64,000 nt of DNA from Cyanidioschyzon merolae (lineage: Eukaryota): NCBI GenBank assembly GCA_000091205.1, contig AP006486.2. One strand, given 5' to 3'. Made by a program: the position numbers and the translations under genes. The notes under the pieces are model-generated. The model saw nothing but the letters and a program-made list of their open reading frames with translations. It was not told where the DNA came from and made no database searches. Below are positions 17,210-52,300 of the stretch, piece by piece. Every line of letters starts with the position of its first letter. The stretch's first letter is position 1.

Positions 17210-20200
17210 GCAGTGAATCCCGGAACAAGTGCATCAGCTCGCACTTTCCTTCTTGTTCCATTTGTCACAAGTACTCATCAAAAGAAATGTATATTTTAGA
17301 TCGGAGAAAGGTCCCGAAAACATTAGATTTCGTCACTGCTAGCTTCCCCGGAAAACGAGCTTGCTTCTTCCAGCCTGTTATTCGTCGGTCAGCAGGCGGA
17401 TACATCCCCGCCCTTCACGTATTGCTTATCCTGAACGTTGTGCTTCCACAACAGAACTTATCAAACCCGCTGGACGCGACGGTCGCCTCGTCAATCCGTT
17501 CCTCCCCATACGTTCTCGGTGAGATACCACCAAAGAAGTCACAGCATGCGCAGTTTCCCCATCGGTGATACAGGCGGAGAAAAATACGCCCGGATGCAAG
17601 AGCAAAACGAACATGCTTCTTCGGGAGACCGTCGCGCATTGAATGAAGCACCCCTCGTTTCGCACTGGAGCGCGAAGGCCTCGCACTCGACGGATGTTCG
17701 TCTCGATATCCTGAACCTTATGCCCGACAAATGGTAGACATGTGCACGGCGACTCGAGCAGGGTCAAACCGCTGTTCGTGCAGCAGAGACAAGAGAGCAT
17801 GATGACAATATCGGCCCTAGCGACGGTGCTATCCTGTGGTCGCCTACGTATCGCGATTCGGACAGGATTGGTCAACGCCTTAGCCTTCGTCGAGGAACGC
17901 TTCGCGGCTTCTCCTCCACCATGTCATTCTATGCTGTTCTTCGTAGACTTCGCTTTCCGTGTCTTAGACGCTGTCAAAGAGTACGCAGGTGGAACTAGCG
18001 CTGAGCCGCCCTTCACGTCAGACTATTCTTCCTGGTTCAATGCGTCGAATGCATCTTGTCTGTTATCAGACACCATCTCTGTGCTCACTCACCTATAGAC
18101 GAGTCATTCGCATCCGTAAAATTATTCTTCAACGAGTACGTCTTCGAGAACAGGTCCTGTACTTTCACTGGGCCTGAATTGCTGCGTTCCTCCTGCGCTC
18201 TTTCTGCTGAGGGAGCGCAGAGGCGCGCTCCGTGCCGCGAGCGTACTCGCCACGGAGAAGTCTGTAATGAGGCACTTGAGCAATCGTGGTTGCTTGCGTA
18301 CACAGAAAAGCACGAATGTCAGCGCCGTCGTCCGCACCGTGTGCCTGAGTCCCAGGAAAAAAGGATTTGGATTATAGCGACAACATCCACACTACTCCGC
18401 CAGCGAGACGACGGGGCGACGGAGAAAGACAGGAAAATGCCGGACAAACAGGAAGTGAATGATCCTCCCAGAAAGAGGACGAAGAAGAACCAGAAGGGAA
18501 AGCGGCCGGGGCAGACATATCAGCGAGAAACAGTTGCCGAAGCCTCTCTACGGAAACACATCAATGGGGGCAAGCCTCCAAGATGTGGGGTTCAGGACAC
18601 CATTCGGGATTTCGAGGCTTCTCACTCGAGGAAGTCTCCACGGGCTTCTCTCGCCGAGGCGCCCGTCGTCAAACACATGTTCGCGTGAGTGCTGGACGCA
18701 GAGCTCCCCGCGCTCCAGGCTCCTCTGGATTTTGCCAAGTAAATCTTCGACCGGCAACGCAGCTGATGCTCGCGACGGTGGATGCAGCACGGCCTGATCG
18801 AAGAATCAGGGACTTGTATGAATGCCTCTGAGCGTACGATGACTCGTCGGCGCGCCGCGTCGGCAACAGGAACGTCTACAACGCAGGTGCCACAGATGAA
18901 ATGAACCACCAAAAATTCAAGTTCCTTGGCGGGTCATTGTTGAGCACCTCACCGGGCATACCCAGTCAGCGTTGTACGCTTGTGCACTCACACCAGTGGT
19001 CCGGAGCGTGAGCACTGATGGAAGGGGTTCATAGGGGTGCCCATGGAGGCAAGTGACGAGCTGGAGGCTACGGAGGAGCGCGAGATGGCAGCGAGTTTCG
19101 AGAAGATGCCGCAGCAAGAGCGGTGGGCGCTTCAGATCGTTCAAGTTTATGGTGCTGCTGAGGGCTATTGGACCGCCGAACGTCGTTCCTGAGTATGTTT
19201 GAAGCGCGACGCCTGCCATGCTTGCATGTTGCGCTACTTCGGTTTCCTGAACAAAACCTCCACTGTAGAGCACCCTCCCTGGCCGAGTCCGAACTCCCTG
19301 GCCTACTCAAGCGCTTCTTGGACGCGGTCCATGCACGCGACTTCTAGGGCCACGATATTACTGTACTGTACTGCACTGCAGTGTACTGGACTGCACTGGA
19401 CTGCACTGCACTGTACTGCACTGTACTGTACTGCTCTGTACTGCACTGCTCTGTACTGCACTGCACTGTACTGCTCTGTACTCCTCTGTACTGCACTGCA
19501 GTGTACTGGACTGGACTGGACTGCACTGCACTGGACTGCACTGTGCTGTGCTGTGCTGTGCTGTGCTGTGCTGTGCTGTGCTGTGCTGTGCTGTGCTGTG
19601 CTGCACTTGACCGCACTGCCCCGTCCTATCCTATACTGTACTACCTGCTCAATGAGCTACAACTGGTCTTTGCGAGCACATATGAAGCACTCGAGCATCT
19701 TTACGAAGAGCATTGGCGGGGGCCGTTCAAGGTTGTTTCTTGACGCAGAGTCCAAGGAAGGAACTGGACAGGTGCAGTGCAGACCGACGGAATATCCCTC
19801 TGGTTGCACTCTGTTCAGTCGATACCCGAGTCCCGCAAAGAGGCTCGTTTCAATCGCTCATCGTCGATGAAATCTAAAATTTCGCGGCGGGTGTAGGTCC
19901 CGGGTTGCAGGACGTCATAGCTGTCGCCGTGCTCCCAGGTCAGGACGACGAAGCCAAGGGCCTGAACTGAAAGCAGCTGGAGAAGCTAAATGTTTCCAGA
20001 GCTCCGTCTTATTGAGGGTCGCGCATGACAGGTGTCAGAAGGCATACCGACAGATGGAATGGACGCGGCAGGACCCAGATAGACGCCCTGAATACCGTGC
20101 GGAGCAGAGGTGGTCCTTCGAACGCTTCAGCCGAAGATTGCGTGAGCGTCTGAATGGCTCGTGCGGAAGGCGTCTCTGGCAGGCGTACCCGAGGCCGCGC

Positions 20201-20935
20201 TGAGGTCGCCAACTTTTTCGGTTGCACGGAGACAAGAAACGTCCATTGACCGTCCACTTCCATATATTGGAGAAGGAAATGACCGACAAGTCGCTTCGTT
20301 CGAAGGCAGCGTAGGGTTCTTGATGTGTTGCGGCGTGCAGTGGCTCCACTCTTGCTCGTCGAATGCGAGCGCACGACAAGTGCAGGAATCGACTCTTCAG
20401 GAATCCCATCGGTGAGTTCGGGACGACAAACACTCCTTGCGGACACGGGTGTGCGCTGAAACCGATTGAGAAGAAGCGAGTGAAGCGCAGACAGCTGTAT
20501 GAGATGGTGTACGGCAGGGTGACCAAACCTCAGATACCGGTGCATTCGAAGGCGAGCGGCTTTGTATAGTGCGATTCTACCAGCAAGCTTGTGCGCAGGC
20601 GCTTTCTGCAGCGAGACTTGAACGTCCCGCTCAACGTTCGGAAATGTCACGTGCCTCCGGAGCGCTCAGCGGCTTTGCATCGAGCGGGTTGTCGGGGAAG
20701 AATCGTTCGCTTCTCAGCGTAGGCATTGTGCTGGAGCGCTGAGGACTCCCGATGCAGAACAAATCAGTAGCCGGGATCGAGGATCGTGGATTTCCGCCTG
20801 GAGCAAGACACTGGTATGGAACGGTGTATCAGTTCGGAATAGGCTGGAGTGCCGCTTATCTAGATCGGGAAAGACTTTCGTAGGCAACTGATGAGTGATT
20901 ATGGTGTAGGATTACTCAATAAGATGGGCAAAGTT
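17210..20935. repeat. Copy A of a ~3.6-3.7 kb direct segmental repeat. It is ~98% identical to 29773-33355 and has no recognisable coding content.
   Basis: The ORF-track translations are near-identical between copies: 17426-17875 vs 29991-30440, 18056-18688 vs 30621-31253, 20009-20650 vs 32434-33075. Nucleotide alignment starts at ~17210/29773 and ends at ~20935/33355. Confidence 0.9.
19358..19612. repeat. Pentanucleotide minisatellite: degenerate (ACTGC/ACTGT/ACTGG)n followed by (CTGTG)14.
   Basis: I read this directly from the sequence. The ORFs over it (Cys/Thr/Leu/Ala-rich, 19199-19870 and 19344-19616) are translation artefacts of the repeat. Confidence 0.9.
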
Positions 20936-27760: not shown

Positions 27761-28339
27761 CGCTATTAAGCGTTCGTGCGCTCATGCGCGCACGACCCAC
27801 GAAGCGCCGCGCTGCGAGCACAACAAGCTAGCATCGCTGCAACAATACAGCGGAAGTGCCAAGCTGTGCAAAACACCGCATGGTACCCTGTCCAAACATC
27901 CTTTCAGAAGCTGCTCGTTTTGGTTGGTCACATCATCGCCACACAGGTACCAGGGATCCTCGATTGCGCATTTGATACTAGTGCGTAGTGCAGCCTACAT
28001 CGTTGCACGCCGCACTTCCTACTTCCACGACCCATTCGTACCCTCATACGTCCTGGGTGCCGCTAGAGATCGCAGGCAGGCGCAGGTCATCGCCAACCGC
28101 TCATCATCAACGCAGCGCCTATGTGCCCGGCTACCTGACTATCTGGATACCTGGCTATCTGGATGTGTGCTTTGCAATGCGTCGCAATAGCTGCATCACG
28201 CGATTCCACAAATGGCGTGGCAGCATTGCCGCTGGCGCAGCGCGCGGCAGCTGTCTCGCGATAATGTACGGTGGGGGTTTGCAGTTGGCGCGCGCAGTTC
28301 AGCGAGCGTTTAGTGATATCTTTTGAGCAAGAGTGGCTG

Positions 28340-29413
28340 ATGACGGAGAAACATAAGGTTGCTATACTTGGATCAGGTAACTGGGGCAGCACGGTGGCGA
28401 AGATCGTGGGATCGAACGTCAAAACGAAGACAGAATCGTTTGATCCGGAGGTTCGCGTGTGGGTATACGAGGAGCTTGTCGACGGACGGAAACTTACCGA
28501 GATTATCAATAGCGATCACGAGAATGTCAAGTACCTTCCAGGTAAGAAGCTTCCAGAGAACGTGGTTGCCGTTCCGGACCCGATCGAGGCTGTCGCTGGG
28601 GCCGATATTCTCGTCTTTGTGCTGCCTCACCAGTTTGTGCGAGGCCTCTGTGCCAAGCTCCGAGGGAACGTTCGCGAGGGCGCTTTCGCAGTTTCGTTGA
28701 TTAAAGGCGTGGAGTTTGATGAAAACGGTATTGTGCTGATTAGCGACGTGATTTCGAAGGAACTTGGTGTGGAGTGTTCCGTTCTGATGGGCGCAAATAT
28801 TGCCAATGAGATAGCAGATGAGCAGTTCAGTGAGGCCACCATCGGGTACAAGAATGCCGCGCACGCGAAACTATTGCAAATCATTTTCCAGAAGCCCTAC
28901 TTTCGGATCGCAGGTGCACCAGATATCCCAGGCGTAGAGATCTGTGGGGCCCTAAAAAACGTGGTTGCTCTTGGAGCCGGTTTCTGTGATGGCCTCGGTT
29001 ACGGAAACAACACGAAGGCGGCAGTTATTCGTTTTGGACTCCTGGAAATGGTTCGTTTTGCGAAAAAGTTTTTCAAGAATGTCCAGTATACAACGTTCTT
29101 GCAGTCTAGTGGTGTGGCGGATCTCATAACGACTTGCTACGGTGGCCGAAATCGTAAATGCGCGGAGGCATTTGCGCGGGCTGGTGGCCGGAAGAGTTTC
29201 GAAGAACTGGAGGTGGAACTGCTCAATGGCCAAAAGCTCCAAGGTACGCTCACAGCGAAAGAAGTACATGAGGTACTCCAGCGCCAAAAACTTATGAAAG
29301 AGTTTCCATTTTTTGAAGTGATATATGATATCGTTTACGAAGGTAGACCGGTTGAGCAGTTCCTGCAGGAGCTGAGCGAGAAAGAGCTCTCGCTTGAAGG
29401 AAACATTGAGTGA
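28340..29413 (+). CDS. GPD1: NAD+-dependent glycerol-3-phosphate dehydrogenase.
   Basis: KVAILGSGNWGSTVAKIVG (NAD-binding GxGxxG), VFVLPHQF, GALKNVVALGAGFCDGLGYGNNTKAA and LITTCYGGRNRKCAEAF are colinear with eukaryotic GPD1. The ORF is open from 28271; I chose the Met at 28340 because the homology starts there. Confidence 0.9.
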   Translation: MTEKHKVAILGSGNWGSTVAKIVGSNVKTKTESFDPEVRVWVYEELVDGRKLTEIINSDHENVKYLPGKKLPENVVAVPDPIEAVAGADILVFVLPHQFVRGLCAKLRGNVREGAFAVSLIKGVEFDENGIVLISDVISKELGVECSVLMGANIANEIADEQFSEATIGYKNAAHAKLLQIIFQKPYFRIAGAPDIPGVEICGALKNVVALGAGFCDGLGYGNNTKAAVIRFGLLEMVRFAKKFFKNVQYTTFLQSSGVADLITTCYGGRNRKCAEAFARAGGRKSFEELEVELLNGQKLQGTLTAKEVHEVLQRQKLMKEFPFFEVIYDIVYEGRPVEQFLQELSEKELSLEGNIE

Positions 29414-29772: not shown

Positions 29773-32700
29773 GAGCAGTGAATCCTGGAACAAGTGCATC
29801 AGCTCGCACTTTCCTTCTTGTTCCTTTTGTCACAAGTACTCATCAAAAGAAATGTATATTTTAGATCGGAGAAAGGTCCCGAAAACATCAGATTTCGTCA
29901 CTGCTAGCTTCCCCGGAAAACGAGCTTGCTTCTTCAAGTCTGTTATTCGTCGGCCAGCAGGCGGATACATCCCCGCCCTTCACGTATTGCTTATCCTGAA
30001 CGTTGTGCTCCCACAACAGAACTTATCAAACCCGCTGGACGCGACGGTCGCCTCGTCAATCCATTCCTCCCCATACGTTCTCGGTGAGATACCACCAAAG
30101 AAGTCACAGCATGCGCAGCTTCCCCATCGGTGATACAGGCGGAGAAAAATACGCCCGGATGCAAGAGCAAAACGAACATGCTTCTTCGGGAGACCGTCGC
30201 GCATTGCATGAAGCACCCCTCGTTTCGCACTGGAGCGCGAAGGCCTCGCACTCGACGGATGTTCGTCTCGATATCCTGAACCTTATGCCCGACAAATGGT
30301 AGACATGTGCACGGCGACTCGAGCAGGGTCAAACCGCTGTTCGTGCAGCAGAGACAAGAGAGCATGATGACAATATCGGCCCTAGCGACGGTGCTATCCT
30401 GTGGTCGCCTACGTATCGCGATTCGGACAGGATTGGTCAACGCCTTAGCCTTCGTCGAGGAACGCTTCGCGGCTTCTCCTCCACCATGTCATTCTATGCT
30501 GTTCTTCGTAGACTTCGCTTTCCGTGTCTTAGACGCTGTCAAAGAGTACGCAGGTGGAACTAGCGCTGAGCCGCCCTTCACGTCAGACTATTCTTCCTGG
30601 TTCAATGCGTCGAATGCATCTTGTCTGTTATCAGACACCATCTCTGTGCTCACTCACCTATAGACGAGTCATTCGCATCCGTAAAATTATTCTTCAACGA
30701 GTACGTCTTCGAGAACAGGTCCTGTACTTTCACTGGGCCTGAATTGCTGCGTTCCTCCTGCGCTCTTTCTGCTGGGGGAGCGCAGAGGCGCGCTCCGTGC
30801 CGCGAGCGTACTCGCCACGGAGAAGTCTGTAATGAGGCACTTGAGCAATCGTGGTTGCTTGCGTACACAGAAAAGCACGAATGTCAGCGCCGTCGTCCGC
30901 ACCGTGTGCCTGAGTCCCAGGAAAAAAGGATTTGGATTATAGCGACAACATCCACACTACTCCGCCAGCGAGACGACGGGGCGACGGAGAAAGACAGGAA
31001 AATGCCGGACAAACGGGAAGTGAATGATCCTCCCAGAAAGAGGACCAAGAAGAACCAGAAGGGAAAGCGGCCGGGGCAGACATATCAGCGAGAAACAGTT
31101 GCCGAAGCCTCTCTACGGAAACACATCAATGGGGGCAAGCCTCCAAGATGTGGGGTTCAGGACACCATTCGGGATTTCGAGGCTTCTCACTCGATGAAGT
31201 CTCGACGGGCTTCTCTCGCCGAGGCGCCCGTCGTCAAACACATGTTCGCGTGAGTGCTGGACACAGAGCTCCCCGCGCTCCAGGCTCCTCTGGATTTTGC
31301 CAAGTAAATCTTCGACCGGCAACGCAGCTGATGCTCGCGACGGTGGATGCAGCACGGCCTGATCGAAGAATCAGGGACTTGTATGAATGCCTCTGAGCGT
31401 ACGATGACTCGTCGGCGCGCCGCGTCGGCAACAGGAACGTCTACAACGCAGGTGCCACAGATGAAATGAACCACCAAAAATTCAAGTTCCTTGGCGGGTC
31501 ATTGTTGAGCACCTCACCGGGCATACCCAGTCAGCGTTGTACGCTTGTGCACTCACACCAGTGGTCCGGAGCGTGAGCACTGATGGAAGGGGTTCATAGG
31601 GGTGCCCATGGAGGCAAGTGACGAGCTGGAGGCTACGGAGGAGCGCGAGATGGCAGCGAGTTTCGAGAAGATGCCGCAGCAAGAGCGGTGGGCGCTTCAG
31701 ATCGTTCAAGCTTATGGTGCTGCTGAGGGCTATTGGACCGCCGAACGTCGTTCCTGAGTATGTTTGAAGCGCGACGCCTGCCATGCTTGCATGTTGCGCT
31801 ACTTCGGTTTCCTGAACAAAACCTCCACTGTAGAGCACCCTCCCTGGCCGAGTCCGAACTACCTGGCCTACTCAAGCGCTTCTTGGACGCGGTCCAAGCA
31901 CGCGACTTCGAGGCCCACGATATTACTGTACTGCACTGCACTGCAGTGTACTGGACTGGACTGGACTGCACTGCACTGGACTGCACTGTGCTGTGCTGTG
32001 CTGTGCTGTGCTGTGCTGTGCTGTGCTGCACTTGACCGCACTGCCCCGTCCTATCCTATACTGTACTACCTGCTCAATGAGCTACAACTGGTCTTTGCGA
32101 GCACGTATGAAGCACTCGAGCATCTTTACGAAGAGCATTGGCGGGGGCCGTTCAAGGTTGTTTCTTGACGCAGAGTCCAAGGAAGGAACTGGACAGGTGC
32201 AGTGGAGACCGACGGAGTATCCCTCTGGTTGCACTCTGCTCAGTCGATACCCGAGTCCCGCAAAGAGGCTCGTTTCAATCGCTCATCGTCGCTGAAATCT
32301 AAAATTTCGCGGCGGGTGCAGGTCCCGGGTTGCAGGACGTCATAGCTGTCGCCGTGCTCCCAGGTCAGGACGACGAAGCCAAGGGCCTGAACTGAAAGCA
32401 GCTGGAGAAGCTAAATGTTTCCAGAGCTCCGTCTTATTGAGGGTCGCGCATGACAGGTGTCAGAAGGCATACCGACAGATGGAATGGACGCGGCAGGACC
32501 CAGATAGACGCCCTGAATACCGTGCGGAGCAGAGGTGGTCCTTCGAACGCTTCAGCCGAAGATTGCGTGAGCGTCTGAATGGCTCGTGCGGAAGGCGTCT
32601 CTGGCAGGCGTACCCGAGGCCGCGCTGAGGTCGCCAACTTTTTCGGTTGCACGGAGACAAGAAACGTCCATTGACCATCCACTTCTATAAATTGGAGAAG

Positions 32701-33355
32701 GAAATGACCGACAAGTCGCTTCGTTCGAAGGCAGCGTAGGGTTCTTGATGTGTTGCGGCGTGCAGTGGCTCCACTCTTGCTCGTCGAATGCGAGCGCACG
32801 ACAAGTGCAGGAATCGACTCTTCAGGAATCCCATCGGTGAGTGCGGGACGACAAACACTCCTTGCGGACACGGGTGTGCGCTGAAACTGATTGAGAAGAA
32901 GCGAGTGAAGCGCAGACGGCTGTATAAGATGGTGTACGGCAGGGTGACCAAACCTCAGATACCGGTGCATTCGAAGGCGAGCGGCTTTGTATAGTGCGAT
33001 TCTACCAGCAAGCTTGTGCGCAGGCGCTTTCTGCATCGAGACTTGAACGTCCCGCTCAACGTTCGGAAATGTCACGTGCCTCCGGAGCGCTCAGCGGCTT
33101 TGCATCGTGCGGGTTGTCGGGGAAGAATCGTTCGCTTCTCAGCGTAGGCATTGTGCTGGAGCGCTGAGGACTCCCGATGCAGAACAAATCAGTAGCCGGG
33201 ATCGAGGATCGTGGATTTCCGCCTGGAGCAAGACACTGGTATGGAACGGTGTATCAGTTCGGAATAGGCTGGAGTGCCGCTTGTCTACATCGGGAAAGAC
33301 TTTCGTAGGCAACTGATGAGTGATTATGGTGTAGGATTACCCAATAAAATGGGCA
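29773..33355. repeat. Copy B of the direct repeat, in the same orientation as copy A. It is ~140 bp shorter because its internal minisatellite is contracted.
   Basis: Same evidence as copy A. It begins ~360 bp after the GPD stop codon. Confidence 0.9.
31924..32026. repeat. The same minisatellite in repeat copy B, contracted: the ACTGN block is ~60 bp instead of ~180 bp, and (CTGTG)8 instead of 14.
   Basis: I read this directly from the sequence. Confidence 0.9.
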
Positions 33356-34507
33356 GAAGAGCACCATAATATCGGTTCCTGAAATTAACCGATACGGCGA
33401 TACTTGCGAATACTGGGATCGTTTCATGAAGCTCATGAGCTAAAATGTATCGAGACAGGACTCGAGCGCTTCCGGCAGGATAACAGAACCCCATGTAAGG
33501 TAGTGTAGTGTTTTTCTTCCGTTCCGGCCCGTGAGATGCTTGAAGACGCCTTGTTGAGTGGTACACAATGTTTCTCAGTGGCGTCCGATCACACTTTGCG
33601 CATCGATTGTCGTTCTAACTGGCTGCTCCAGACTCCAGATATTTCGAGGATCTTGCACGAACAACGGCGCCTAGATTGCTTGCTTCTTGACAAGTATGGT
33701 TCCTTGTTTATGCGCCCCGGGTGAACTTAGATCTTGCTCGGTCTCAGCGCGTATCTACGAGACTGTGATTGCCGCAAAACACGTCAATTAGATCATGACC
33801 AGATATCTATTCCGGCTTATTCTTCGCTGTGCAGCTCGTACCTTGACAATATCTTGACAGCGTCCCTATTAGCGTTCTATATGGGAATCCAGCAACCTGT
33901 ACGCCCATACATGATAGTCTGAAAGTTTCCGCTAGTCACTGCTCCATGCGGTGCAGTTCATACGAGAATGCTCAGAATATTTTTGCCAGATTTTTCGCTG
34001 AAGCTCCCAATAGCCAGCGGAACTTGCTGTCTATAAAGCCGGAAAACGTGTTCGGCCCCTGGGGGAGGCAACTTGTAACCGAGGCGCGGCGCTTCGCCTC
34101 AAGAGTCTGTGGCCTGCGCCGCCTCCTTCGGGCCAAGACTGGAAACACCGGAAAATAACTAAAAGTCAGTTGCGTCGCCAGCGAATGCTCGACAAAGCAT
34201 CGCCAGTACAAGTCAGAGCAGGTGGACGGGTACGCTAGGCATGCAAGACACTGCCCAACCGAGCCGAATTCCACAAAGGAAAAGAATATCCGTCCCGATT
34301 CTATACGAATTCCGCAACAGCTGGAAAAGCGCGCGAGGTAGCATCCGCAGCCCGAGGTCTTTTCGAACCGACGATCTACATGCTCAGTGGAGCGAAAAGG
34401 CATCGCTTCCATAGAGAATGTAAATACACTCACTCTCAGACGCCCTCAGCCGTTTTCGACAGGCCCACTTTCATCGGCTTCAGCTTCGTCCTGCACACTT
34501 CGAGCTT

Positions 34508-35477
34508 GAGGGGCTGCCCCATGGAGCTGGATCGCGTCAGATCCTCGAGTCTCTTCTCCGGCACCGCACATCTCCTGATATTGATGGCAGCACTCAAGTC
34601 TCGATTCCCGAACTCTATAGGCTCATTGCCACTAATGGAACGCATCACTTCACGGATTCCTAAGCTTCTTGCTCTCAGTGCCAACCGATGCTCCGTGAGC
34701 GCCCCGTGCTTTTCTATCGCCGAAGCGCTCCGCGGCCTGCTCGCCATCACGACCTTCTGAAGTTTAAACCCAAGCTCATCCACTGGATTTTCATTTCTTG
34801 AAATGAACGCACTTCTTCTTGCACTTAGGTGGGACCTTCCCGATGATAAAGAAGAACTTACGGAAGAAAGACGGGATGCATATCAGCGTTACCGTGTACT
34901 GAACATTTCAGCAATGCGCCCAGTGGAGCGATCATTACGTTTCTCGACGGGAAGCACTCCATGGATGGGGTCGAACCACGGAGAGTACGGAGGAGTGAAA
35001 ACCACTTCTACCCCGACAGAATTAGCAAAAGCTGGAACGCGACGTGAATGATGAAGTGCAACTTTATGCAATAGAGGGGTATTATCAGACGTGGGGAGAA
35101 GGCTTCAATAGTTGGACATACTGAATGCTGTTGTATGAACCCTCTCTACGAGCGAAACCAACGGCGCCAAACGAATCCTCTTGAACTAGAACAGATGAAG
35201 ATGTCCTCGTTCCCTACCAGCTCGATCGTACATACAGCGGGCTTGCTCTGAGCCAATACGCATATTCGTGCCGACTGTTTCATCTGAAGCAAGTCACATC
35301 GACCGAAAAAACATACCGACATCTCTGTTCTTCACAACCATGGCGACTTTCGAGGAACTCTGTAGTTGTGATGTTGGTGGAAGATGGCTGTGCATGAAAT
35401 TTGACTGCTTTTTTTGCGAATGTATCCCAGTGTATTCAGTAGCATACGAACAAGCTGTTGGGAAACAGAGACGCCCG
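34508..35477. repeat. Left arm of a ~1 kb inverted repeat. Its partner is 41185-42160. Similarity continues beyond both ends at lower identity.
   Basis: ORF translations from one arm reappear on the opposite strand of the other: 34803-35051(+) equals 41614-41862(-), 35268-35480(+) equals 41176-41397(-), and 34436-34783(-) equals 41882-42418(+). I confirmed the reverse-complement match of the edges by eye. Confidence 0.85.
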
Positions 35478-36854
35478 TAACTGCTATTATCTTCTCCTTT
35501 GTTTTGCGTGAGATGATCGAGGAGTCCTTTTTGTACCATTCACCGCAAGTGGGTCGTGATAATGTCGGGTTTTGGCACCTTGCGCGTATACGTGTTTCTT
35601 TCAGTGTTCCTGAATTATCAGAGGAATGTGGCATGACTGACCTGAAGGAGTTTGTCATCCGCTTGCACTGTTCTGTAAAGACTATATCCTACAGGCAATT
35701 ATTCTACAATTTATAAGGTGCACTGCATCATGATTTCGATCTCTTGCTAAAGACTGCACCGGCTGTGGAACGAAACTGAGTTGTAAGACTATAATGGATG
35801 GTGAATGGTGGATCCTGAGGTCATGGTGCAGAATGATGAACACCCTCACGGACGCGAATAGTATTCGCGCTCAATCGAAGATAACTCTGTTCGTGTACAC
35901 GATCCGTCAATCATCATAAAGAAACTATCCGGTTGCTACATCCTATGGACCATTGAACAATAGCAGTGACACTTACCATCGAATCGGTGCATTTTTACCG
36001 AAAAGAACAAAAACTAACCTCTTACTAGCAACTCTACAGCAGCTTCTTTCTTCTCTACGCTGAGCGATAGAAGGGGGAGGAGTTTTCCGTAGTTTCCGAC
36101 GTTTACGTTCTGGGCGGAAGGTCCGGCGGGCCGGACAAGTCTGCAACGCAAGAACGTCATGCTCCTCCCTGTGGCGGGTGCTGCGGTTCGACCTTTAGCA
36201 GCTTGTCCGCAGCCCAGTTTATTCGGGCACTGGGCGTGGCCCTGGTCCCGGTGATCCCCTAGCTATCGCTTCGCATTGCCGCATGCAGTAGGTCTGTCTG
36301 CGCAGTTTGCAGGCTTCCGGAAGGATGATGTTATCCGATCCCGTGTCGGATGAACCACGCCTCGAGTCGACATGCCGATTGGTATGGCAACGCGGATCTG
36401 TCTCCGCGCTTCATCCGCACCAGCGGTATAGACGCTTTTGCGGGTGCTTACAACAGGCTCGGGGCACGGTAGAATATACGAAACGATCAGTATATCCGAG
36501 AGCAAATATGGGTAATGGAACTGGGACGTGTTGCGCAGCATGATGAACGCTTTCTCGATTACCAACGTCGATCACGCAATCTGGGATCCATGTACAACGT
36601 AAACGCTTCGTCGAAGAAAAAACATATAGAACTGAGCAGCGCGCTGGACCCGCCGCAGTTCGCAGCGACCCAGGTCACCAGATCCATACACTTGCCACAG
36701 GCAATAGCGTTCTGCACGCAATGAGCGCCTCACAGAAAAGGGTCACTTTAGTCGACAATTTTGAGGAGCTCTTTTTCGTTCGCGGAAGGAACGCCAAGGC
36801 GTAGAGAGGGCCGTTAGTCACCTGTGGGAAGCTATTTGTGGCTGTGTATTCTAG

Positions 36855-37550
36855 ATGGCAGCACTGGAGTCTGTGCCGTCTGGCGACGCGGAGCCGCGTC
36901 AAACGCTGCCACGGTCCCCGAGAGGTCGGCGCTCCTTCACAGAAGCACAACGAAAGGCTGCTTGGGAGCGAGCAAAGCCCGTTCCGGGGCGCGATCCCGA
37001 GCGATGGCGATATGATGTGTACGGAAATCCAGTTTTGCGGCCCTTGCACGGCTGTTTAGGCTGCTTTTGCTATGAGTTTGACCACCGAGTACCCTACTCG
37101 CTCGGAGGCGCGACAAGTCTTGACAATTGTGACATTCTTCAAACGCGCATAAACCGTCTCAAATCGAACGCTCTAGAAGGAGTGAATATATCCAGGGAAC
37201 AAATCCGCCAGTATGCATGTGAAGACGTGTCAAATGTCATTGACATGGACGCCATAGAGTTCGCGGTTTACGGCGACGTGCGCCGCGAGGGGCTTCACTG
37301 CCGTGCATACAGCTTGTTCGAGAAGGTCGCTTCCGAAATGCTGGTTTCCACCGGGCGAGTATCCAGGTTTGAAAGCGGATCTCCAGCAGTAACGGAACAT
37401 TCACCCATGAAGATATCTCGTCAAAGCAACATCCCATCATGCACCGAAGCGTTGAACCGTACTCCACAGCAGCAAGGCATGAAACCAGTACCGAGTCATC
37501 CTGAAATACCGATTCCACCCGCTTGGCTCTTTCTTCCATCCTTCTCGTGA
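36855..37550 (+). CDS. HNH-nuclease-domain protein (231 aa).
   Basis: The stretch ...RDPERWRYDVYGNPVL...CLGCFCYEFDHRVPYSLGGATSLDNCDILQTRINRLKSN has the HNH signature (Cys pair, DH, ...N...L....N..K). The C-terminal half is Ser/Pro-rich and low-complexity. Confidence 0.5.
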   Translation: MAALESVPSGDAEPRQTLPRSPRGRRSFTEAQRKAAWERAKPVPGRDPERWRYDVYGNPVLRPLHGCLGCFCYEFDHRVPYSLGGATSLDNCDILQTRINRLKSNALEGVNISREQIRQYACEDVSNVIDMDAIEFAVYGDVRREGLHCRAYSLFEKVASEMLVSTGRVSRFESGSPAVTEHSPMKISRQSNIPSCTEALNRTPQQQGMKPVPSHPEIPIPPAWLFLPSFS

Positions 37551-38224
37551 AATGAAGTGGTATCTGGCTGCTGGTATAGAACCTGCTAAACCACTACCCA
37601 CTAAAATGCATTCGAGTGTATATATATGCCGGTGCACAAGTGAGCTAATTTCTCATCGCCATTACGATCCAGCGTTAATATTGCCATCGAGATCCAGAAT
37701 ATGTGCAGGAGTTGCGACCGTTTCATGCAGCAATCAGTCTGATAATTACGTCCAAACTCTGAAAAGTGCAATCGATCCCAAATCCGTCTGGTCTGCTGTA
37801 ACTGCACCTTCTGAGCAATAAAGTGCCGCAGCGTTTCACGTTCTGGGTTAAAGCTTGCATTCTCGATTGGTGATCAAGCATGCAAACATGCGGCTGAGCT
37901 ATAAAAGTGAGAATCTGCGATATGCCGAAACTGATGTATGCAACCTCCTCGAGGAGATCGTGCACAGATGGGGCAGCCTGCACTAGAGCTGCAGTTGCCC
38001 AGTCGGCATCTAACATCGGCTGAGCTCGATGACAGCGCGTCCCGGCACACAGCAGAAACTACAGTCCTGTGCGAACTACCTCACAGGCGCACCTTCGAGA
38101 AGCAGAGAACCATCATCGTTAAGACGCGACTCACCTCTCCCACGCCGAGCTCGTTCCACCTCGCATGAAGACATCAAATGCCGCAAACATTGGCGTTGCT
38201 ACATCAGAATCGCTTCCACCGCCG

Positions 38225-39094
38225 TTATCTACTAGACGAGCGTGAACCGGCCGTGAGTTCAAGGGCGCGCTCTACGCTCCGCCATTGCTCTGCGCTTAGT
38301 GCCTCGTCGGGCTCAGCGAATTGCAGCCTCGATAGCCAGAGTTTCGCTGATTCTAATGAAAAGCCATACTTGTTCTGCAGAATATCCAAGCCTTCACCTG
38401 TGCAAAACTTTCTCTGTAAGGGCTCAATCTCACGCTTTAGTTCCGATACGGCGGCTCTTACATGTGCATCATCTCGACAAACAAGCACAAAAGCCGGCCA
38501 TGAAGGCGCATATTCGCCGACAAGGCGAATCAGACCCTGTCGTGTAGCTGCACACTCCTTTGTGAAACACGTTTCCCAGAGGAACATGTCGATGTCACCG
38601 GCAACTGCGGCCTGTATCAGACCATCGAAACTTCCGCATTCGAAGCTCTTTAGTATATCATTTTGAATACCTGTAGAGATCCAGCCACGATCACTAGCGA
38701 AAACAGAAAGAAGTAGATGGCTTCCGGAGCCCCTTCGGGAGAATCCCGCTCGGATGCTTTCTCCGCGAAGCACGGCCGCATCCAAGCTATTCAGATCAGT
38801 CCAGTCGGTTTTCTTGGAACTCACTGCGACTCCCCAGGCTAGAGGAGAAGCAACGTATACAGAGTGCACAGCGAGCCCAGAGGCAGCTGCTTTTGTGCGT
38901 GCCACAGCGCTCTCGGTAAGTGTAACCGCTACGTCTAACTCGCACTTCGCCAACATTTCGAGCGCGGCACCGCTGCCACCTGCAACCCCCAGAAACTCAA
39001 CCTGTAACTTCGTGGACGGGAGAGCGCCCTCCTGGGCTTGCATAAAAATCTCGTTGAAAGGCTCGGGCACGCCGCCAACTCGTAGTAAAGTCAT
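38225..39094 (-). CDS. Periplasmic-binding-protein-type-II-fold protein, NMT1/THI5-SsuA-like domain. The assignment is tentative.
   Basis: The N-terminal LLRVGGVPEPFNEIF...LQVEFLGVAGGSGAALEMLAKCELDVAVTLTES resembles the VEF...G...LE.L..GE.D core of the SsuA/NMT1 family. I have no stronger signature. Confidence 0.3.
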   Translation of the reverse strand: MTLLRVGGVPEPFNEIFMQAQEGALPSTKLQVEFLGVAGGSGAALEMLAKCELDVAVTLTESAVARTKAAASGLAVHSVYVASPLAWGVAVSSKKTDWTDLNSLDAAVLRGESIRAGFSRRGSGSHLLLSVFASDRGWISTGIQNDILKSFECGSFDGLIQAAVAGDIDMFLWETCFTKECAATRQGLIRLVGEYAPSWPAFVLVCRDDAHVRAAVSELKREIEPLQRKFCTGEGLDILQNKYGFSLESAKLWLSRLQFAEPDEALSAEQWRSVERALELTAGSRSSSR

Positions 39095-39896
39095 TATGAA
39101 AAAAGCACGTCCTCACAGGAAGAAAAGCCAGTACTCAATATACCTCTTCGTGCGCATCGTTGTAGCAGGACGGGCAGTTCTCCATGGGACTGTTTCAATG
39201 CATTGAAAAGAGTGTCCTTGGATCCAGAGAGCTAAAAAGATATGAAGCAAAACGAAACCTTCAAGGTAGGTAGGAGCCATTGCTGTTGTCCATGGACCGG
39301 CTTTGACGCGTTTAGGTGGATGTAAACGTACCCCGCAGCATGACCACGTAAGGGAACCAGAGGCGTCCCGATAGGCGATAGCCGTTGTGATGGCTTCTGG
39401 AGATAGAACGCGCTGACTTACATTCAGGCCGCACGCTGGGTCGTATACGTGAACGTGCTGACTGAGAGAGCCGGCTTCGTTCAAGGACAAGGTGCCCAGA
39501 GCTGCATTCCAGTGTGCCAAAGGCGTATGTGCCATGCTCTGAGCATCCGCGGGAAAACGAGAAGACTCGAGGATGCACGAGGACTTTGTCCAAGCTTTCG
39601 ATCTCGATTCCTATCGAGCTGCAACTTATGCGATGATCGAGTTGGGCCTGCAAGCTGGTCTGGAGTCGGACATGGAAACTTGTCTTTTCATGAAGACGTC
39701 ATGAATCAAGATCCAACCGCTTAAAGTAGGAAAGCTACATATATTTTGCTCCTACGCAAAACTGGAGCGCGAAATTTGCAGCCCACGTAAAGCTGTCTCC
39801 ATGAAGCTGCCTTCCCGAAAAAATTCTCCCCGAAGCCATCAGTTTTCAGCACAGAGGACCATGCTCCGCCGAGATCCATGCTTGTCCGCGTACCTG

Positions 39897-40691
39897 TCAC
39901 ATGAGATGCTGGTATCGCCACAATTTGATGCCCAGAAAAGTAGACGCAATATACGCCACCGTCCACCCTATACTCTCAATGATGGTCATCGCTCGCCAAT
40001 ACGTCCGCAAATTTTTGGCATTATTCTGAATCCATCCGAGACGTGTCCAACCGTTGAATGGAAACGGGAAGCTGACGATGCTCATCACAATGCAGAGCGC
40101 CGTGATGATACCGAGTATGCAGTACGATGCCTTATAATAAGTCGAGTCATCTTCCGCGCATGCTCTGAAAACTGTGAAATAACCGGCAGACAAGACAAAA
40201 AACCCCAAAAATACGTTAAGCAAAGAGACCACCCACTGGGCCCACGGATTTGAGGCTGCACCACGGGCTGCGAGAACAGTCCATGTTACCCAGTTCAAAA
40301 CCAACAACACCATAGCGTACCAAAAGAACCAACTGTACAACGCTGGGTTTGCTCGGACTAGAGGCACCAGCTCCGACAAATCTATGTGCACAACGTGGAA
40401 TATAGCCGGCCAGTTCGGTTTGTCCCACTCGATCCCTTTTCCAGTTACGGTGTTCGCGTTTCGAATAGGTACCGGGGGTGGCACCCGGCTGGCCCCTTCT
40501 GTGGCGTCCTCACCCATTTGAAACTCTTCCGGAAACCCAGCACCATGACGTTCTAGGGTGATCTTGCCACCAACTTTTTGGATCCAGCTCATGCCTCTCT
40601 GTAAAGACCCGTTGTGCTTGTAGGAAGTCCAAAAAAAACTCAGCCAAGCGAAGTGGATAAAAGTACAGCGGCGCGGCTCGCGCGCTTCCAT
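39897..40691 (-). CDS. Secretory carrier membrane protein (SCAMP)-like protein with four transmembrane segments.
   Basis: A KPNWPAIF motif (compare the SCAMP NWPP motif) is followed by four hydrophobic segments spaced as in SCAMPs, with an amphipathic segment after TM2. Confidence 0.5.
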   Translation of the reverse strand: MEAREPRRCTFIHFAWLSFFWTSYKHNGSLQRGMSWIQKVGGKITLERHGAGFPEEFQMGEDATEGASRVPPPVPIRNANTVTGKGIEWDKPNWPAIFHVVHIDLSELVPLVRANPALYSWFFWYAMVLLVLNWVTWTVLAARGAASNPWAQWVVSLLNVFLGFFVLSAGYFTVFRACAEDDSTYYKASYCILGIITALCIVMSIVSFPFPFNGWTRLGWIQNNAKNLRTYWRAMTIIESIGWTVAYIASTFLGIKLWRYQHLM

Positions 40692-41184
40692 TCTGAACGC
40701 ACAATCGTAGAGCCGTTACGCGTTCATCGATAGTGTGGGATATCGATGAGGGGATAGCGGGATCCCCCATATGCACAATGATGATGGATGTCCAGGTAAG
40801 AAGCCACCATCCGACCTGGGCCCGCTCAGTTCCAGTCTCCGCTAACAATACCTCCGTTCAGAGATGGTACAGTCTTTCAACTCGAATGTGTTTTAGCCTC
40901 GCTGCGGTGCATAGCTTGAGATCGAATTCAGTATGCAGTGTAACCAATAGATCGGGGACGAATTGACTGCAGCTATGCATTCTTCAATGACCGGCGCACG
41001 GAGGACTGCATTCCTCCTCCTTCAGTTCAGACATACTACAGTACACAGATGGTGTAGGAGCACTGACAGAAAGAAGTAAGTGCGCTCCGCGCCAAAAACC
41101 GATATTCTCAAAGACTGGTTGAGGTCAATTGTAGAAAACGACCGATTGGTCATCTTGCGGAAAGCAAAAGCGACGTTAGAATCC

Positions 41185-42160
41185 ATCCGGGCGTCTCTGT
41201 TTCCCAACAGCTTGTTCGTATGCTACTGAATACACTGGGATACATTCGCAAAAAAAGCAGTCAAATTTCATGCACAGCCATCTTCCACCAACATCACAAC
41301 TACAGAGTTCCTCGAAAGTCGCCATGGTTGTGAAGAACAGAGATGTCGGTATGTTTTTTCCGTCGATGTGACTTGCTTCAGATGAAACAGTCGGCACGAA
41401 TATGCGTATTGGCTCAGAGCAAACCCGCTGTACGTACGATCGAGCTGGTAGGGAACGAGGACATCTTCATCTGTTCTAGTTCAAGAGGATTCGTTTGGCG
41501 CCGTTGGTTTCGCTCGTAGAGAGGGTCCATACAACGGCATTCAGTATGTCCAACTATTGAAGCCTTCTCCCCACGTCTGATAACGCCCCTCTATTGCATA
41601 AAGTTGCACTTCATCATTCACGTCGCGTTCCAGCTTTTGCTAATTCTGTCGGGGTAGAAGTGGTTTTCACTCCTCCGTACTCTCCGTGGTTCGACCCCAT
41701 CCATGGAGTGCTTCCCGTCGAGAAACGTAATGATCGCTCCACTGGGCGCATTGCTGAAATGTTCAGTACACGGTAACGCTGATATGCATCCCGTCTTTCT
41801 TCCGTAAGTTCTTCTTTATCATCGGGAAGGTCCCACCTAAGTGCAAGAAGAAGTGCGTTCATTTCAAGAAATGAAAATCCAGTGGATGAGCTTGGGTTTA
41901 AACTTCAGAAGGTCGTGATGGCGAGCAGGCAGCGGAGCGCTTCGGCGATAGAAAAGCACGGGGCGCTCACGGAGCATCGGTTGGCACTGAGAGCAAGAAG
42001 CTTAGGAATCCGTGAAGTGATGCGTTCCATTAGTGGCAATGAGCCTATAGAGTTCGGGAATCGAGACTTGAGTGCTGCCATCAATATCAGGAGATGTGCG
42101 GTGCCGGAGAAGAGACTCGAGGATCTGACGCGATCCAGCTCCATGGGGCAGCCTCTCAGG
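41185..42160. repeat. Right arm of the inverted repeat.
   Basis: As for the left arm. Confidence 0.85.
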
Positions 42161-43466
42161 ATCGAAGCGTTCCTGCGTAAACTGGAAGCGATAGAATGCA
42201 ACCGGCCAAAAAGGCTAGCTGGCGTCCGTGCGTCGGTATTAGTTGCCCCGATATGGTCGTGGGGCATTTTTGGTTCCATTGACCGTATAATGGACAGGAG
42301 CGGAGGTTCTCGAACGGATCGATTCTCCGATTTGTCAGCGGAGCGCCCGTGTAGAGGTGCATACGGTGGTGCGAAAAGTGTTCACTGTAGGGTCGGCCCA
42401 GACGAGTCGTTGGAGTGAACTTGCCTCTCTTCTGATGATGACTATCGGTCTGGAGCTCTAGGCGCGCTAACGCTTTCGAAGGGTTTCAGCGCTGGCTTCC
42501 GTAGAGCTAGGCAGCACTCATGTTTTGCGGGGCATCCGATTTGCTTCATAGAATCTGGCTAATGAGTAACTGGGAACGGGAGAGGCTAGTACTAAGCGTT
42601 TCTCGTCGGTTCGAGTCCCCCTGAAATTAGCCACACTTATATCGAATTACGGGCTTCCACACAGACGGATAGCATGCTTCACCAAATGGACTGAACTGCA
42701 AGTTGCCGAAAGCGAGCTGCACCTCAAGGCCATGTTCTTCATGAGGTACGGGAATCAGGAGCTGTGTCGCGTTGCTGCAGAGCAGATCCACCTATAGTAG
42801 ACAGCTCGGTTCGAGAGCGAGTCCAACCGCTACGCAGAGCTCGCTGTATTCTATGATGCACCTTGAGGCGATCGGTTGCACCCCGAACGATGAGACTTCT
42901 CAGCAGTTTACCGTGTATCATCCGAGACGACCACAAAATGGATGTGGAGCAGCGTTCAGACTGAGGCTTAGTTGCGCCTCTCAAGCAAGTGACGATACCA
43001 GTAATGGAGGAGAAGTTGTCGGTGGCCCTGCTCAGAGCAACGAGCCTATTCATGCATGTTCGTTGAGGTTCGTGCAGGTCCGTCGAACGCGCTCAAAGCG
43101 GTCGTTGCATCATCCGTTTGACCTGGCTTCGTATGCTCGCGTGCATGTCTTATTTGATGCCAACCAAACAGTTGCTTGTACTCTTGCGCTGGTTTCGGCG
43201 CTAGTGCTCGACCAGTTTTGTATTCCCTGCGTGGTCGAATAGCGCCTGAACACACGCACTAATCTTGATAGGCACAATGAAACCTCCGCTAACTTCCCGA
43301 ATAAGGGCTGTGGCGAGTTTCTCTTGTTTCCACAGCGGGTCTGGAGGACTACTTGTTGTTGACCGAGGCAGAGGCTTCAGTCAAACGTCAGCTGCGTTTA
43401 GACTTTAGTGCAGCTTCTTTTGTAGGACCCAAGTCAATTTTCGATACCCCTCTACGGGCAGAAGCG

Positions 43467-49393: not shown

Positions 49394-52300
49394 TCTATTT
49401 TCGGCCCTAAATCTTCTCTCACCGATACCTGTTAAAACAAGAGTCCTACCTGCTCGTTGTGGTGCAGGGCAAAAGCGTGGAGGCACCGGGAATCGATCGG
49501 TTGGCGCTCTGTCCAGAACCCGGGGCGAGGCAATGCGAATGCCTCGAGTTACCACTATGCTGGTTGACTAATCTCCATGCCCCCTACGCTGAGGCTGTGC
49601 GCAGAAAGTGTATATAAAGACGTGCGACGTGACGCGGGCCGGGACGCATGTGTGCTCAAATCGCCGGAGCTTGGCGGACGAATCGCGATCGCCGCGCAGA
49701 TGGGGTCGGTGCTGCGTCGAGTCGCCGACGAGGTCGCTGATGGGCAGCTCTACGAGAATTCTCTTTTGTGGTGCAGGATCGCAGACATGACCAGTTATCT
49801 CCGGTGCGCAATTGACATAGACATCGAGAGCCGCATGCGTCATTCCGTATGAGAATTCCAGGCTCTGCCAACAACCAGTAATCAAACCGTCTCCTCCTTG
49901 GGTATCATGGTAAGCTCACAGAACGATTTCCCATCGTGCCGAGCCTACCATCCGTGCGGCTGGGGCGTCTGCAGCGCGGCTGCGGACGCCACACGGACAC
50001 ATAGTTGCTCTATCATATTCTTGCGGGTTCCGACTCGAGGTATTCGTCGGGGAGTAGGCTATGAATGACCCGCAGATGCCAGCGCACTGAATTGTGGGTA
50101 CACGGCGATGAGCTTGTGCAACGGGACGCTGTGCTGCTGTCAGGTCTCGCGTTTGGCGACGTGTTTTGCACCTCGGAACAAGAGGTCCAGTTTGGTACAT
50201 GATGCAGGTTCTCCAGTGCTCGGCGAACGGAGAGGATACGTGCCATTTGGAACATATCCCATCGAGAGAAATGAGAGGGGCGTGAGCATGCGGGCCTTCC
50301 TACCTGAACCTGTCGCTGATGAGGTTTCCGTTTTGATGAAAGCCTCAGATGGGGAGTGATATACGCTGTAGATCCATATCTCAGCCTGTTCGAATGCTTA
50401 TTCGCCGGGAAAGCTCAGCGGGTTGTATAGCAGCCCCTGCCGCTGCTGCGTTCCGTCTCCGCAGCCTGCTCAGGCCAACGTACACCGAGGCTAAACGAGC
50501 GGATTCGGTTACCAGAATGACCTGCATGGGTTGAGTCTGGAAAGGATTTTTTGATGTTGCCAGCACAGCTAAATTTTTTATGTTTCTGACGCAGCATTTT
50601 TTTGATGGAGCTCGACGTGCCGGGCCGCAGTGCCATGTCGCGGTGGGCTCGCCCAATCCTGCTGATGAAACTGCTATACTAGCCCGCAACGCAAAAACCG
50701 AGCGATATTCCAGCATTGAGAACGCTTCGAACACACCTTTCATCGGCGTTGCGCAAAGCTATGTCTCGGGGTGCCGCTGCTCGATCTTGTACAGGTGTCG
50801 CTGAGCGCTGCTGATCAATCAGTTTGATATACCTTCATTGAAAAAACGGCAACTTTCCAGCGCTGCTCATGCATGGCACGGGGCTTTGCATGCTCTATGT
50901 GGAAAGGTTTGTATCGGATTTCTCTATTCTGTAGCTGTAAACGTACATCCAAACATCGGGTTGCCTTCGCCAATTGAAAGACCCGCCAGGCTGCGGACGG
51001 ACGTCAGTTTGCCGTGTGTGTATTTCATCTGTATTCGCTTCGCAGTGTCGACTAGTACACGCAGACGCGGTTGCTCTGAAGGCCTTTGTTGCACTCGCAA
51101 CTTCTATGACATGCGATTTTCGCATCGGTGCCGCAAGGAAGCTCGCTGCCGCTGTACGATGGGCGCTGCCTCGCGAAACTCACGAAGCGCACTATGCCGC
51201 AGAAGACCGCGGATCTTGGTCCCGGTCAGAATTCCTGCGACAAGCCGGGCATTTAATATATGACATCAGTTTATGACTGGCCGCTGCGTGAGAACGGCGC
51301 GTTGACAAATAGCGCGGGCCACAAACTCCGCGGCATATGCAGAGGGTCCTCAGTCTTGCAATCGTTACACATTGGGTGTTCTGCGTGGACCGTATCATGG
51401 CTTGTGGCGGATAAACCGGACCTATTCTGCCATCCATGCATCGTGGGTGCAAAGGTCTGCCATTAGCAACCATTAAACTTCAATATAGCAGCGGAAAGCT
51501 TGTCTGCTGCTTCCATACGCATTACCGTGTCGAACATGTTTTCCACATGGACATAGCGCAAACGCGTCCAGCGGCAAGACGATCGAGGGCTTCCTGTCGT
51601 CCAGGGGGTCGCTCTGGAGCTCATGGAGCATATTAGCATCTGGAGAAGCACGGCAGTCTATTCTCTATGTATCGGGGGCGTCTACGCTACTCGGAGTTTG
51701 TAGTTTGAATTCATGATTCAACATCCTAAAGAAGAAATAAGGTGGGCGCTCTGCGCGCTTCTGATTCACTGAGAGCTACCTTCGACATAAACGACCAGTT
51801 TCTACAAAACTACAAGATGATGCCATGGTTCCTCCTGGGCTAGATAAAGCGGACAGCGTATAGCGAATGAAAATGCATAGCGCCGCAATTCTCGGCAGCT
51901 GCACCGAAGCCTTTCCGACTTGGTCCTTGCGTGAAAAGTGATTCCATTTCCAGCACTACGGTACAGAAGCCAGTACGAGTTCCTATGCGACGCACACAAA
52001 TGATCGCTCTGCAGTGCTGCTCATAGACACCACAACAGGATTGTGCAGCGGAATACGATAGCCATAAAGAAGCACAGCGAACTTCAAAGAAAACAGTTGC
52101 CTCCCACGAGATGACTTTTCGGCGATTCACGCCCAGTTCGGATCTACACTCAGAAAAAGACTTGCTACGATTGGCTCCATCCTCATAGCAGTATGGACGA
52201 TCAAACATCGCTGAGCTGCAACATTGAAGTCCGCACGAGCTGAGACTTTTCTCCAGGCGAATCGCCAATACTCTCTCTAAAGCCCCTATTTAACGCCTAG

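Follow-up and report, generated by a model that had tools for sequence, protein, structure and literature searches.

The single Fanzor1 family described in Cyanidioschyzon merolae, CMe-1A, comprises unclassified elements of ∼3169 bp that lack terminal inverted repeats (TIRs) and are present in ∼150 copies, ∼80% identical to the consensus (PMC3627910). The 253-copy, 3.2-kb interspersed element that Nozaki et al. (2007) found to occupy ∼5% of the genome and to be related to WSV486 of the white spot syndrome virus (WSSV) (PMC1955436) very likely represents the same family, so that this genome would carry about 150-253 copies of a Fanzor1 (TnpB-like) element. The class II elements of C. merolae are related only to bacterial transposases, according to the same authors (PMC1955436). 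In the mariner/Tc1-Fanzor1 element PUl-1 of Pythium ultimum (Bao and Jurka, 2013), a DDE_3 transposase is followed by Fanzor1 on the same strand. The subject of this analysis is an inverted repeat with arms of ∼1 kb in a 64,000-nucleotide stretch of C. merolae DNA (GenBank assembly GCA_000091205.1, contig AP006486.2; hereafter the window), which belongs to chromosome 4 of strain 10D, the TERT of the window (BAM79184) being CMD110C (PMC1955436). Its arms appear to result from gene conversion between two ancient copies of one transposon relic, which surround three host genes in inverted orientation (estimated probability, ∼0.78). The CMe-1A family itself has already been published; what is new is this particular instance and the juxtaposition of DDE_3 and Fanzor1 sequences within it.

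Comparison of the window with itself yields two core arms of 980 bp (listed with all other features in Table 1) that are 98.9% identical, with 11 mismatches and no gaps, and are separated by a spacer of 5710 bp. The near-identical inverted arms that had been placed at 34508-35477 and 41185-42160 in the first-pass annotation of this DNA are thus real, with their coordinates moved by 3-10 bp. The length and identity of the arms exclude a chance similarity, and an artefact of this particular sequence is contradicted by the independent visibility of the repeat in metagenome assemblies of close strains. In strains ∼99.2% identical to the window, contigs of dozens of such assemblies end exactly at 35477/35478 and 41187/41188, and several contigs consist of the internal segment only (5712 bp there, corresponding to 35478-41187 in the window).

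The similarity of the two copies extends past the core on both sides. When they are aligned in the orientation of the transposon, identity is 63-65% at 40867-41187, 98-100% at 41188-42153, and ∼60% at 42154-42300, with nothing but noise past 42300. The final 14 bp of the core contain 3 of its 11 mismatches, which puts its effective end in arm 2 at ∼42153. Even when the core is masked, nhmmer pairs the inner flanks (E values of 7e-27 and 4e-28), and their alignment score of 163 compares with -58 ± 13 in shuffled sequences. The outer flanks, which are short, score above 1000 of 1000 shuffles, and each of them independently matches the CMe-1A consensus up to ∼3107-3109, i.e., up to the Fanzor stop codon. 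Hence, of the earlier description of the arms as having graded edges, the significant similarity beyond both boundaries (60-65%) stands, whereas the gradual decrease does not: the profile is an abrupt step from 63-65% to 98-100% and down to ∼60%. Judging from these alignments, old homology of ∼1.45 kb (about 34352-35793 and 40867-42318) appears to enclose a young core of 966-980 bp. The old homology sets in at TA-CAGTCTTTCAACTC at position 40867 in copy 2 and at TA-TAGTCTTACAACTC at position 35793 in copy 1 (the hyphen marks the onset). A hidden Markov model (HMM) built from the two copies aligns 40867-42299, and nhmmer aligns 35794-34377 to copy 2. In both relics the 3' end faces outward, leftward in copy 1 and toward the EPL1 gene in copy 2.

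The outer part of the arms could be assigned by using the CMe-1A consensus DNA and the 734-residue protein from the supplement of PMC3627910. Read outward, the arms encode …AIEKHGALTE…FGNRDLSAAINIRRCAV…, which resembles the RuvC-III motif of TnpB and Fanzor proteins. In tblastn comparisons with the CMe-1 protein, the arm 2 fragment matches residues 612-721 (50% identity, E value of 6e-24) and the arm 1 fragment matches residues 612-734 (45% identity, E value of 6e-22); against natural CMe-1 proteins from the database, the arm frame shows 39-50% amino acid identity, and the arm 2 fragment is 43-45% identical to genuine proteins of the family. In neither arm is the Fanzor C-terminal frame interrupted where it crosses the outer edge of the core (positions 42167 and 34498), and therefore the core is not a separate young insertion. 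Within the core, the Fanzor part is only ∼70% identical to the consensus, whereas active copies reach 80-90%; the arms are thus old copies, and they are nevertheless 99% alike. Compared with CMe-1A, the outer ∼370-430 bp of the arms are homologous to consensus positions 2732-3109(+) and encode the C-terminal RuvC-III region, but the arms keep only the last ∼14% of the element, at ∼70% identity instead of the ∼80% typical of its copies, have no Fanzor open reading frame (ORF), and continue on the 5' side into a DDE_3 remnant, which the published consensus lacks. The recognizable Fanzor1 sequence is limited to residues 612-721/734 (the RuvC-III region), the complete split RuvC being absent, so the arms are best regarded as fragments or relics and not as functional members of Fanzor1. 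The final 60 bp of the CMe-1A consensus align poorly to the relics. Near 42303-42318, the sequence TTCTCGAACGGATCG is similar to the 3' end that intact copies of CMe-1A have, and a terminal motif of the TTCGAA(C/A)GG type is arguably present near 42303-42318 and 34352-34366, in this poorly aligned part.

The inner part of the arm is of a different origin. The possibility that it represents diverged CMe-1A was rejected, as 40867-41880 has no protein or DNA similarity to that element. Instead, both arms contain what appears to be a remnant of a Tc1/mariner-type DDE_3 transposase, which reads …LLHKVALHH…VVFTPPYSPWFDPIHGV… in arm 2 and covers profile positions 87-135 only, with the second catalytic Asp replaced. 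Weak collinear matches to the PUl-1 mariner transposase from Pythium are seen for the helix-turn-helix region (40999-41061), the first catalytic Asp (41454-41504), and the second Asp together with the PPYSP region (41579-41704). The relics share with PUl-1 the order and strand of the DDE_3 and Fanzor1 parts and a 5' onset (TA-CAGT; the two onsets read TA-CAGT and TA-TAGT) like that at Tc1/mariner ends. They differ from it in having an internal gap, which reaches from the end of the transposase to Fanzor residue ∼611, and in lacking detectable TIRs or TA duplications: comparison of the 5' onsets with their own 3' regions and with the CMe-1A 3' end gave nothing above shuffled sequences, and no TA target-site duplications could be detected for the relics. 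Also unlike PUl-1, only two copies have been seen, both at this locus. The juxtaposition of DDE_3 and Fanzor1 could equally well have arisen by nested insertion. A rather unlikely possibility is that the relics represent an undescribed, internally deleted Tc1/mariner-Fanzor1 element, in which case the CMe-1 family of red algae would originally have been mariner-borne, as in oomycetes, and that the arms are still exchanging, and occasionally inverting, in hot-spring populations. A Tc1/mariner-type remnant that abuts a Fanzor1 3' end in C. merolae may in any case bear on the mobilization of this Fanzor family. A second, very diverged DDE_3 (Tc1/mariner-type) relic was observed at an unrelated locus on the minus strand of the metagenome contigs L016-L018, at ∼9528-9949 (…VMLVDDVVFHHSK…LMPAYSTELD…; Pfam DDE_3 E value of 0.005).

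These features fit a history in which two degenerate copies of a ∼1.45-kb relic, each made up of a DDE_3 remnant and, downstream of it on the same strand, the final ∼430 bp of a CMe-1-family Fanzor1, came to flank three host genes in inverted orientation, either through two insertions or through one old inverted duplication. The copies would first have diverged to ∼60-65% identity; later, non-reciprocal homologous recombination could have transferred ∼966-980 bp from the central part of one relic to its counterpart, likely through repair of a break in one relic with the other relic as the template. Such an event would be expected to leave arms that are 99% identical and fall abruptly to the old identity at both ends. 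Its age would roughly match the 0.8% divergence that separates 10D from the metagenome strains. As a side effect, the resulting 1-kb inverted repeat may support a rare crossover inversion of the 5.7-kb segment. Gene conversion is recognized by just such an abrupt identity step within continuous homology, and here the coding relics are collinear over the step. At 42154, 42159, and 42161, the outer-edge differences distinguish arm 1 from arm 2 in all contigs that can be assigned reliably (10D, L031, L030, L001, and L002), so the tract boundary is stable across strains. The whole structure is predicted to encode nothing functional, with the Fanzor and transposase frames both broken, and to be immobile, with no gene capture involved. 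In C. merolae, homologous recombination is efficient, and gene targeting with homology arms of ∼1 kb is routine. The locus would offer a clean, datable case of ectopic gene conversion in a genome known for its simplicity and efficient homologous recombination.

Several points weigh against this interpretation. Conversion is hard to start between sequences that are only ∼64% identical, so it has to be assumed either that homogenization was continuous and its edges were eroding or that a single break was repaired. The DDE_3 match falls slightly under the curated Pfam threshold (28.3 versus 28.6 bits), and TIRs and TA duplications of the relics could not be shown. The search for other copies of the arm covered 116 kb of other loci, mostly from C. 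merolae-like metagenome strains, as compared with the 16.5 Mb of the full 10D genome. A protein search among 5.8 billion clusters with the arm reading frame found only the arm's own ORF and no near-identical extra copy; this indexed search missed real CMe-1 proteins that were recovered by local BLAST, so its result counts solely against near-identical extra copies of the arm. Finally, strain data that resemble concerted evolution, namely, the identical arms of assemblies L003 and L004, are the product of assembly collapse.

This last case was considered as a candidate for concerted evolution and was rejected, as the state at 42154, 42159, and 42161 in "arm 1" of L003/L004 is that of arm 2; because of this edge-site state, the two assemblies are understood to have collapsed the repeat. 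Elsewhere in the arms, sites 41423 and 41433, just 10 bp apart, are found in all four haplotypes among arms and strains, a pattern that gives a weak hint of further exchange. A cluster of three substitutions within 22 bp (41702, 41718, and 41723) sets the L003/L004 arm apart from L031/L001 and from either arm of 10D; it could stem from conversion of a short patch by a third copy or from a multi-nucleotide mutation. With Y-chromosome palindromes and plastid inverted repeats the locus shares near-identical arm interiors, an abrupt collapse of identity at the tract edge, and the potential for inversion of the spacer. Unlike those systems, its arms are dead relics without genes and are small (1 kb), and they show evidence of one or more conversion events, whereas sustained concerted evolution is not indicated.

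The enclosed segment contains, in addition to the inner ends of both relics, a TE-N2_CMe-like element and three genes, coding for an HNH-domain protein, a binding protein, and a SCAMP. A possible further partial copy of TE-N2_CMe at 35806-35908 is not significant (E value of 0.17). The HNH nuclease domain named in the first-pass annotation is recognized in the window protein itself with only a weak Pfam match (E value of 0.04), whereas several homologs score above the Pfam threshold for HNH. An exhaustive HMMER search found 503 homologs at E values of ≤1e-3, with 184 of them at ≤1e-10; those with names, among the ones checked, are small and come from land plants, Closterium, and Chlorokybus, whereas the indexed search returned cyanidialean relatives only. 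On this distribution, HNH is a conserved host gene of Archaeplastida that forms a small family in land plants and streptophyte algae. The gene previously described as NMT1-like could be resolved as encoding a periplasmic-binding-protein fold of the Ca3427/SsuA/THI5 type (E value of 1.1e-5, in agreement with the UniRef name). SCAMP, already considered to be an obvious host gene, has a clear Pfam match and lies next to HNH and an EPL1-like gene in a distant cyanidialean contig of 108 kb with a G+C content of 64% (L013); the EPL1-like protein of the window is an exact match to BAM79190.

Contig L013 bears a 59%-identical HNH homolog in the order DHHC, photolyase, KCS, acetyltransferase, EPL1-like, SCAMP, HNH, and SHMT, and no inverted repeat or CMe-1A similarity was found in the 20.7 kb examined. 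The comparison of syntenic loci, suggested earlier as a check on the cassette, thus gives the order EPL1-SCAMP-HNH without arms or relics, so the neighborhood predates the relics and the genes have not been captured. In another contig (L014), whose HNH homolog is 66% identical, the HNH and binding-protein genes are arranged as in the window. Relative to L013, the order of HNH, SCAMP, EPL1, KCS, and the DHHC-photolyase pair is reversed in the window (36-59 kb) while the strands are kept, except for that of SCAMP; a reversed order with kept strands needs several small inversions or block moves, and the region at 36-59 kb seems to be rearrangement-prone. Rfam and tRNA scans of the window returned nothing.

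Table 1. Coordinates in the window of the repeat arms, transposon remnants, and enclosed genes
Feature	Positions	Strand	Basis and remarks
Ancient relic copy 1 (extended arm 1)	34352-35793	-	Architecture of copy 2, inverted; 3' limit approximate
CMe-1A Fanzor1 3' fragment, arm 1	34412-34784	-	nhmmer, consensus 2732-3109, E value of 2e-37
Homogenized core, arm 1	34498-35477	-	Pairs with arm 2 core
DDE_3 remnant, arm 1	34892-35104	-	Pfam DDE_3, E value of 2.1e-6; tblastn
TE-N2_CMe-like element (= CMe-1A 5' 635 bp), upstream of HNH	35996-36612	-	nhmmer, consensus 5-642, E value of 4.5e-104, 75% identity
HNH-domain gene, host gene (BAM79187)	36855-37550	+	Exact match to C. merolae 10D protein
SsuA/THI5 (NMT1)-like, Ca3427-like binding-protein gene, host gene (BAM79188)	38225-39094	-	PF22384, E value of 1.1e-5
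SCAMP gene, host gene	39897-40691	-	Pfam SCAMP, E value of 1.9e-14
Ancient relic copy 2 (extended arm 2)	40867-42318	+	5' DDE_3 remnant, 3' Fanzor1 (CMe-1A) end; 3' limit approximate
Homogenized core, arm 2	41188-42167	+	98.9% identical to arm 1, no gaps, identity steps at both ends
Tc1/mariner-type DDE_3 remnant, arm 2	41561-41773	+	PF13358, E value of 1.8e-6, 28.3 bits (gathering threshold, 28.6)
CMe-1A Fanzor1 3' fragment, arm 2, pseudogene	41881-42252	+	nhmmer, consensus 2732-3107, E value of 3.8e-40

The first-pass annotation offered two readings of the locus. A composite or giant DNA transposon with TIRs of ∼1 kb, carrying HNH and captured host genes, is suggested at first sight by inverted arms around several genes, one of them with a nuclease domain, but it is rejected as extremely improbable: the arms are internal pieces of older relics, transposon fragments with their 3' ends pointing outward; homology runs past the core edges at 60-65%; the 7.7-kb unit has no sharp termini, TIRs, target-site duplications (none having been seen at the boundaries in the earlier inspection either), or transposase; HNH belongs to a host gene family conserved in the plant lineage; L013 keeps the gene order without arms or transposon relics; and the ∼30 metagenome contigs inspected show no presence/absence variation. 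The other reading, an inverted segmental duplication capable of flipping the segment, was the one favored there and is partly right: the inverted repeat does not move and encloses host genes, and the odd edges are the key clue. Its duplication part fails because the arms come from a transposon relic (CMe-1A Fanzor1 3' end plus DDE_3) present in two ancient copies and not from duplicated host DNA. As for the flipping, reciprocal recombination between the arms, with the 5.7-kb segment and its HNH, binding-protein, and SCAMP genes present in both orientations in the population, is quite unlikely as the explanation of the locus, although it can coexist with conversion as a passive by-product; a functional switch would be a separate claim. 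Inverted arms of 980 bp with 99% identity would permit it, conversion implies their physical recombination, the four haplotypes at 41423/41433 are a weak hint of exchange, and most short-read assemblies break at the arm edges, as any such repeat would cause them to do. Nevertheless, all four arm-spanning assemblies (10D, L003, and L004, the latter two with collapsed arms, and L031, which spans arm 1 only) are in the reference orientation, even if assemblies may miss a minor inverted isomer. The search for contigs in the opposite orientation gave the same picture: the arm-spanning MEGAHIT contig L031 has the reference arrangement, and all non-spanning contigs stop ∼115-192 bp into the arm, those from the EPL1 side at 127 bp into arm 2; in a single scan of metagenome DNA, a 31-mer from the arm 1 outer flank hit one contig, which stops 115 bp into arm 1; and the exact arm 1 ORF is not on record. 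Furthermore, no recombinase domain was recognized in the ORFs analyzed within the segment and beside it, inversion would alter no coding sequence or obvious promoter junction, as the crossover would fall within dead transposon DNA, and the reference orientation keeps the ancestral EPL1-SCAMP-HNH order. The yeast 2-micron FLP/FRT system is similar in that inverted repeats flank a segment with two isomers possible in principle, but the present locus is chromosomal, has neither a site-specific recombinase nor a target site, and has yielded no second isomer. It is a site where an inversion polymorphism could occur in hot-spring populations.

It is very unlikely that the arms derive instead from two recent, independent insertions of mosaic non-autonomous subfamilies that share a near-identical 980-bp module and differ at their ends. 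Fanzor families are indeed modular, with common 3' ends and differing 5' regions (Bao and Jurka, PMC3627910), and identical Fanzor1 proteins in two genomic contexts of metagenomes indicate that the family is still mobile. Against such insertions, the arm Fanzor fragment has the ∼70% identity to the consensus given above and not the 80-90% of active copies, the arm ORF had no further near-identical match, the 116 kb of sequence from elsewhere yielded nothing but the very diverged DDE_3 relic, and the module boundary would lie midway in a continuous coding relic. Gene conversion between two old relics remains the preferred explanation. What resembles a giant cargo transposon, or a nuclease-bearing cassette designed to invert, would then be a by-product of two dead transposon copies and recombination.

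As regards the mobility of CMe-1 in nature, a 449-residue Fanzor1 protein (P0073) that is 90% identical to the consensus is followed by an IF-2 gene in contigs L016-L021 and by a gene for a DAO-domain protein in L022. In the two contexts (L016-L021 versus L022-L025) the 3' flanks differ immediately past …GAACGGCG TTGATG, which suggests that CMe-1 has transposed recently in natural populations and may point to a common 9-nucleotide end or target motif.

The window contains several other repeats. A direct repeat of 3.6-3.7 kb occupies 17208-20933 and 29773-33359 (97.6-98.4% identity, ∼12.5 kb from start to start); both copies begin with GAGCAGTGAATCC… and have sharp edges, so that stepped edges like those of the arms, which were considered for this repeat as well, could be rejected. 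Each copy includes a broken Fanzor1-like relic (19633-20701 and 31740-33126) with ∼30% amino acid identity to CMe-1 and a pentanucleotide microsatellite (CTGTA/CTGCA/CTGTG; 19359-19619 and 31924-32044) whose length differs between the copies. Either a second Fanzor1-type element, as yet undescribed and present here in two young copies, or a segmental duplication seems to account for the direct repeat. Weak CMe-1A-like fragments were detected at 49789-50044 on the plus strand (nhmmer, consensus 22-260, E value of 7.6e-5) and at 63204-63536 on the minus strand (tblastn, residues 246-363, E value of 0.002). Accession numbering implies that only two annotated proteins are encoded between TERT (13221-16067) and HNH (36855), one of which is probably the glycerol-3-phosphate dehydrogenase ORF at 28271-29413. 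For a compact genome, the 16-36 kb part of the window is unusually rich in transposon relics and duplications.

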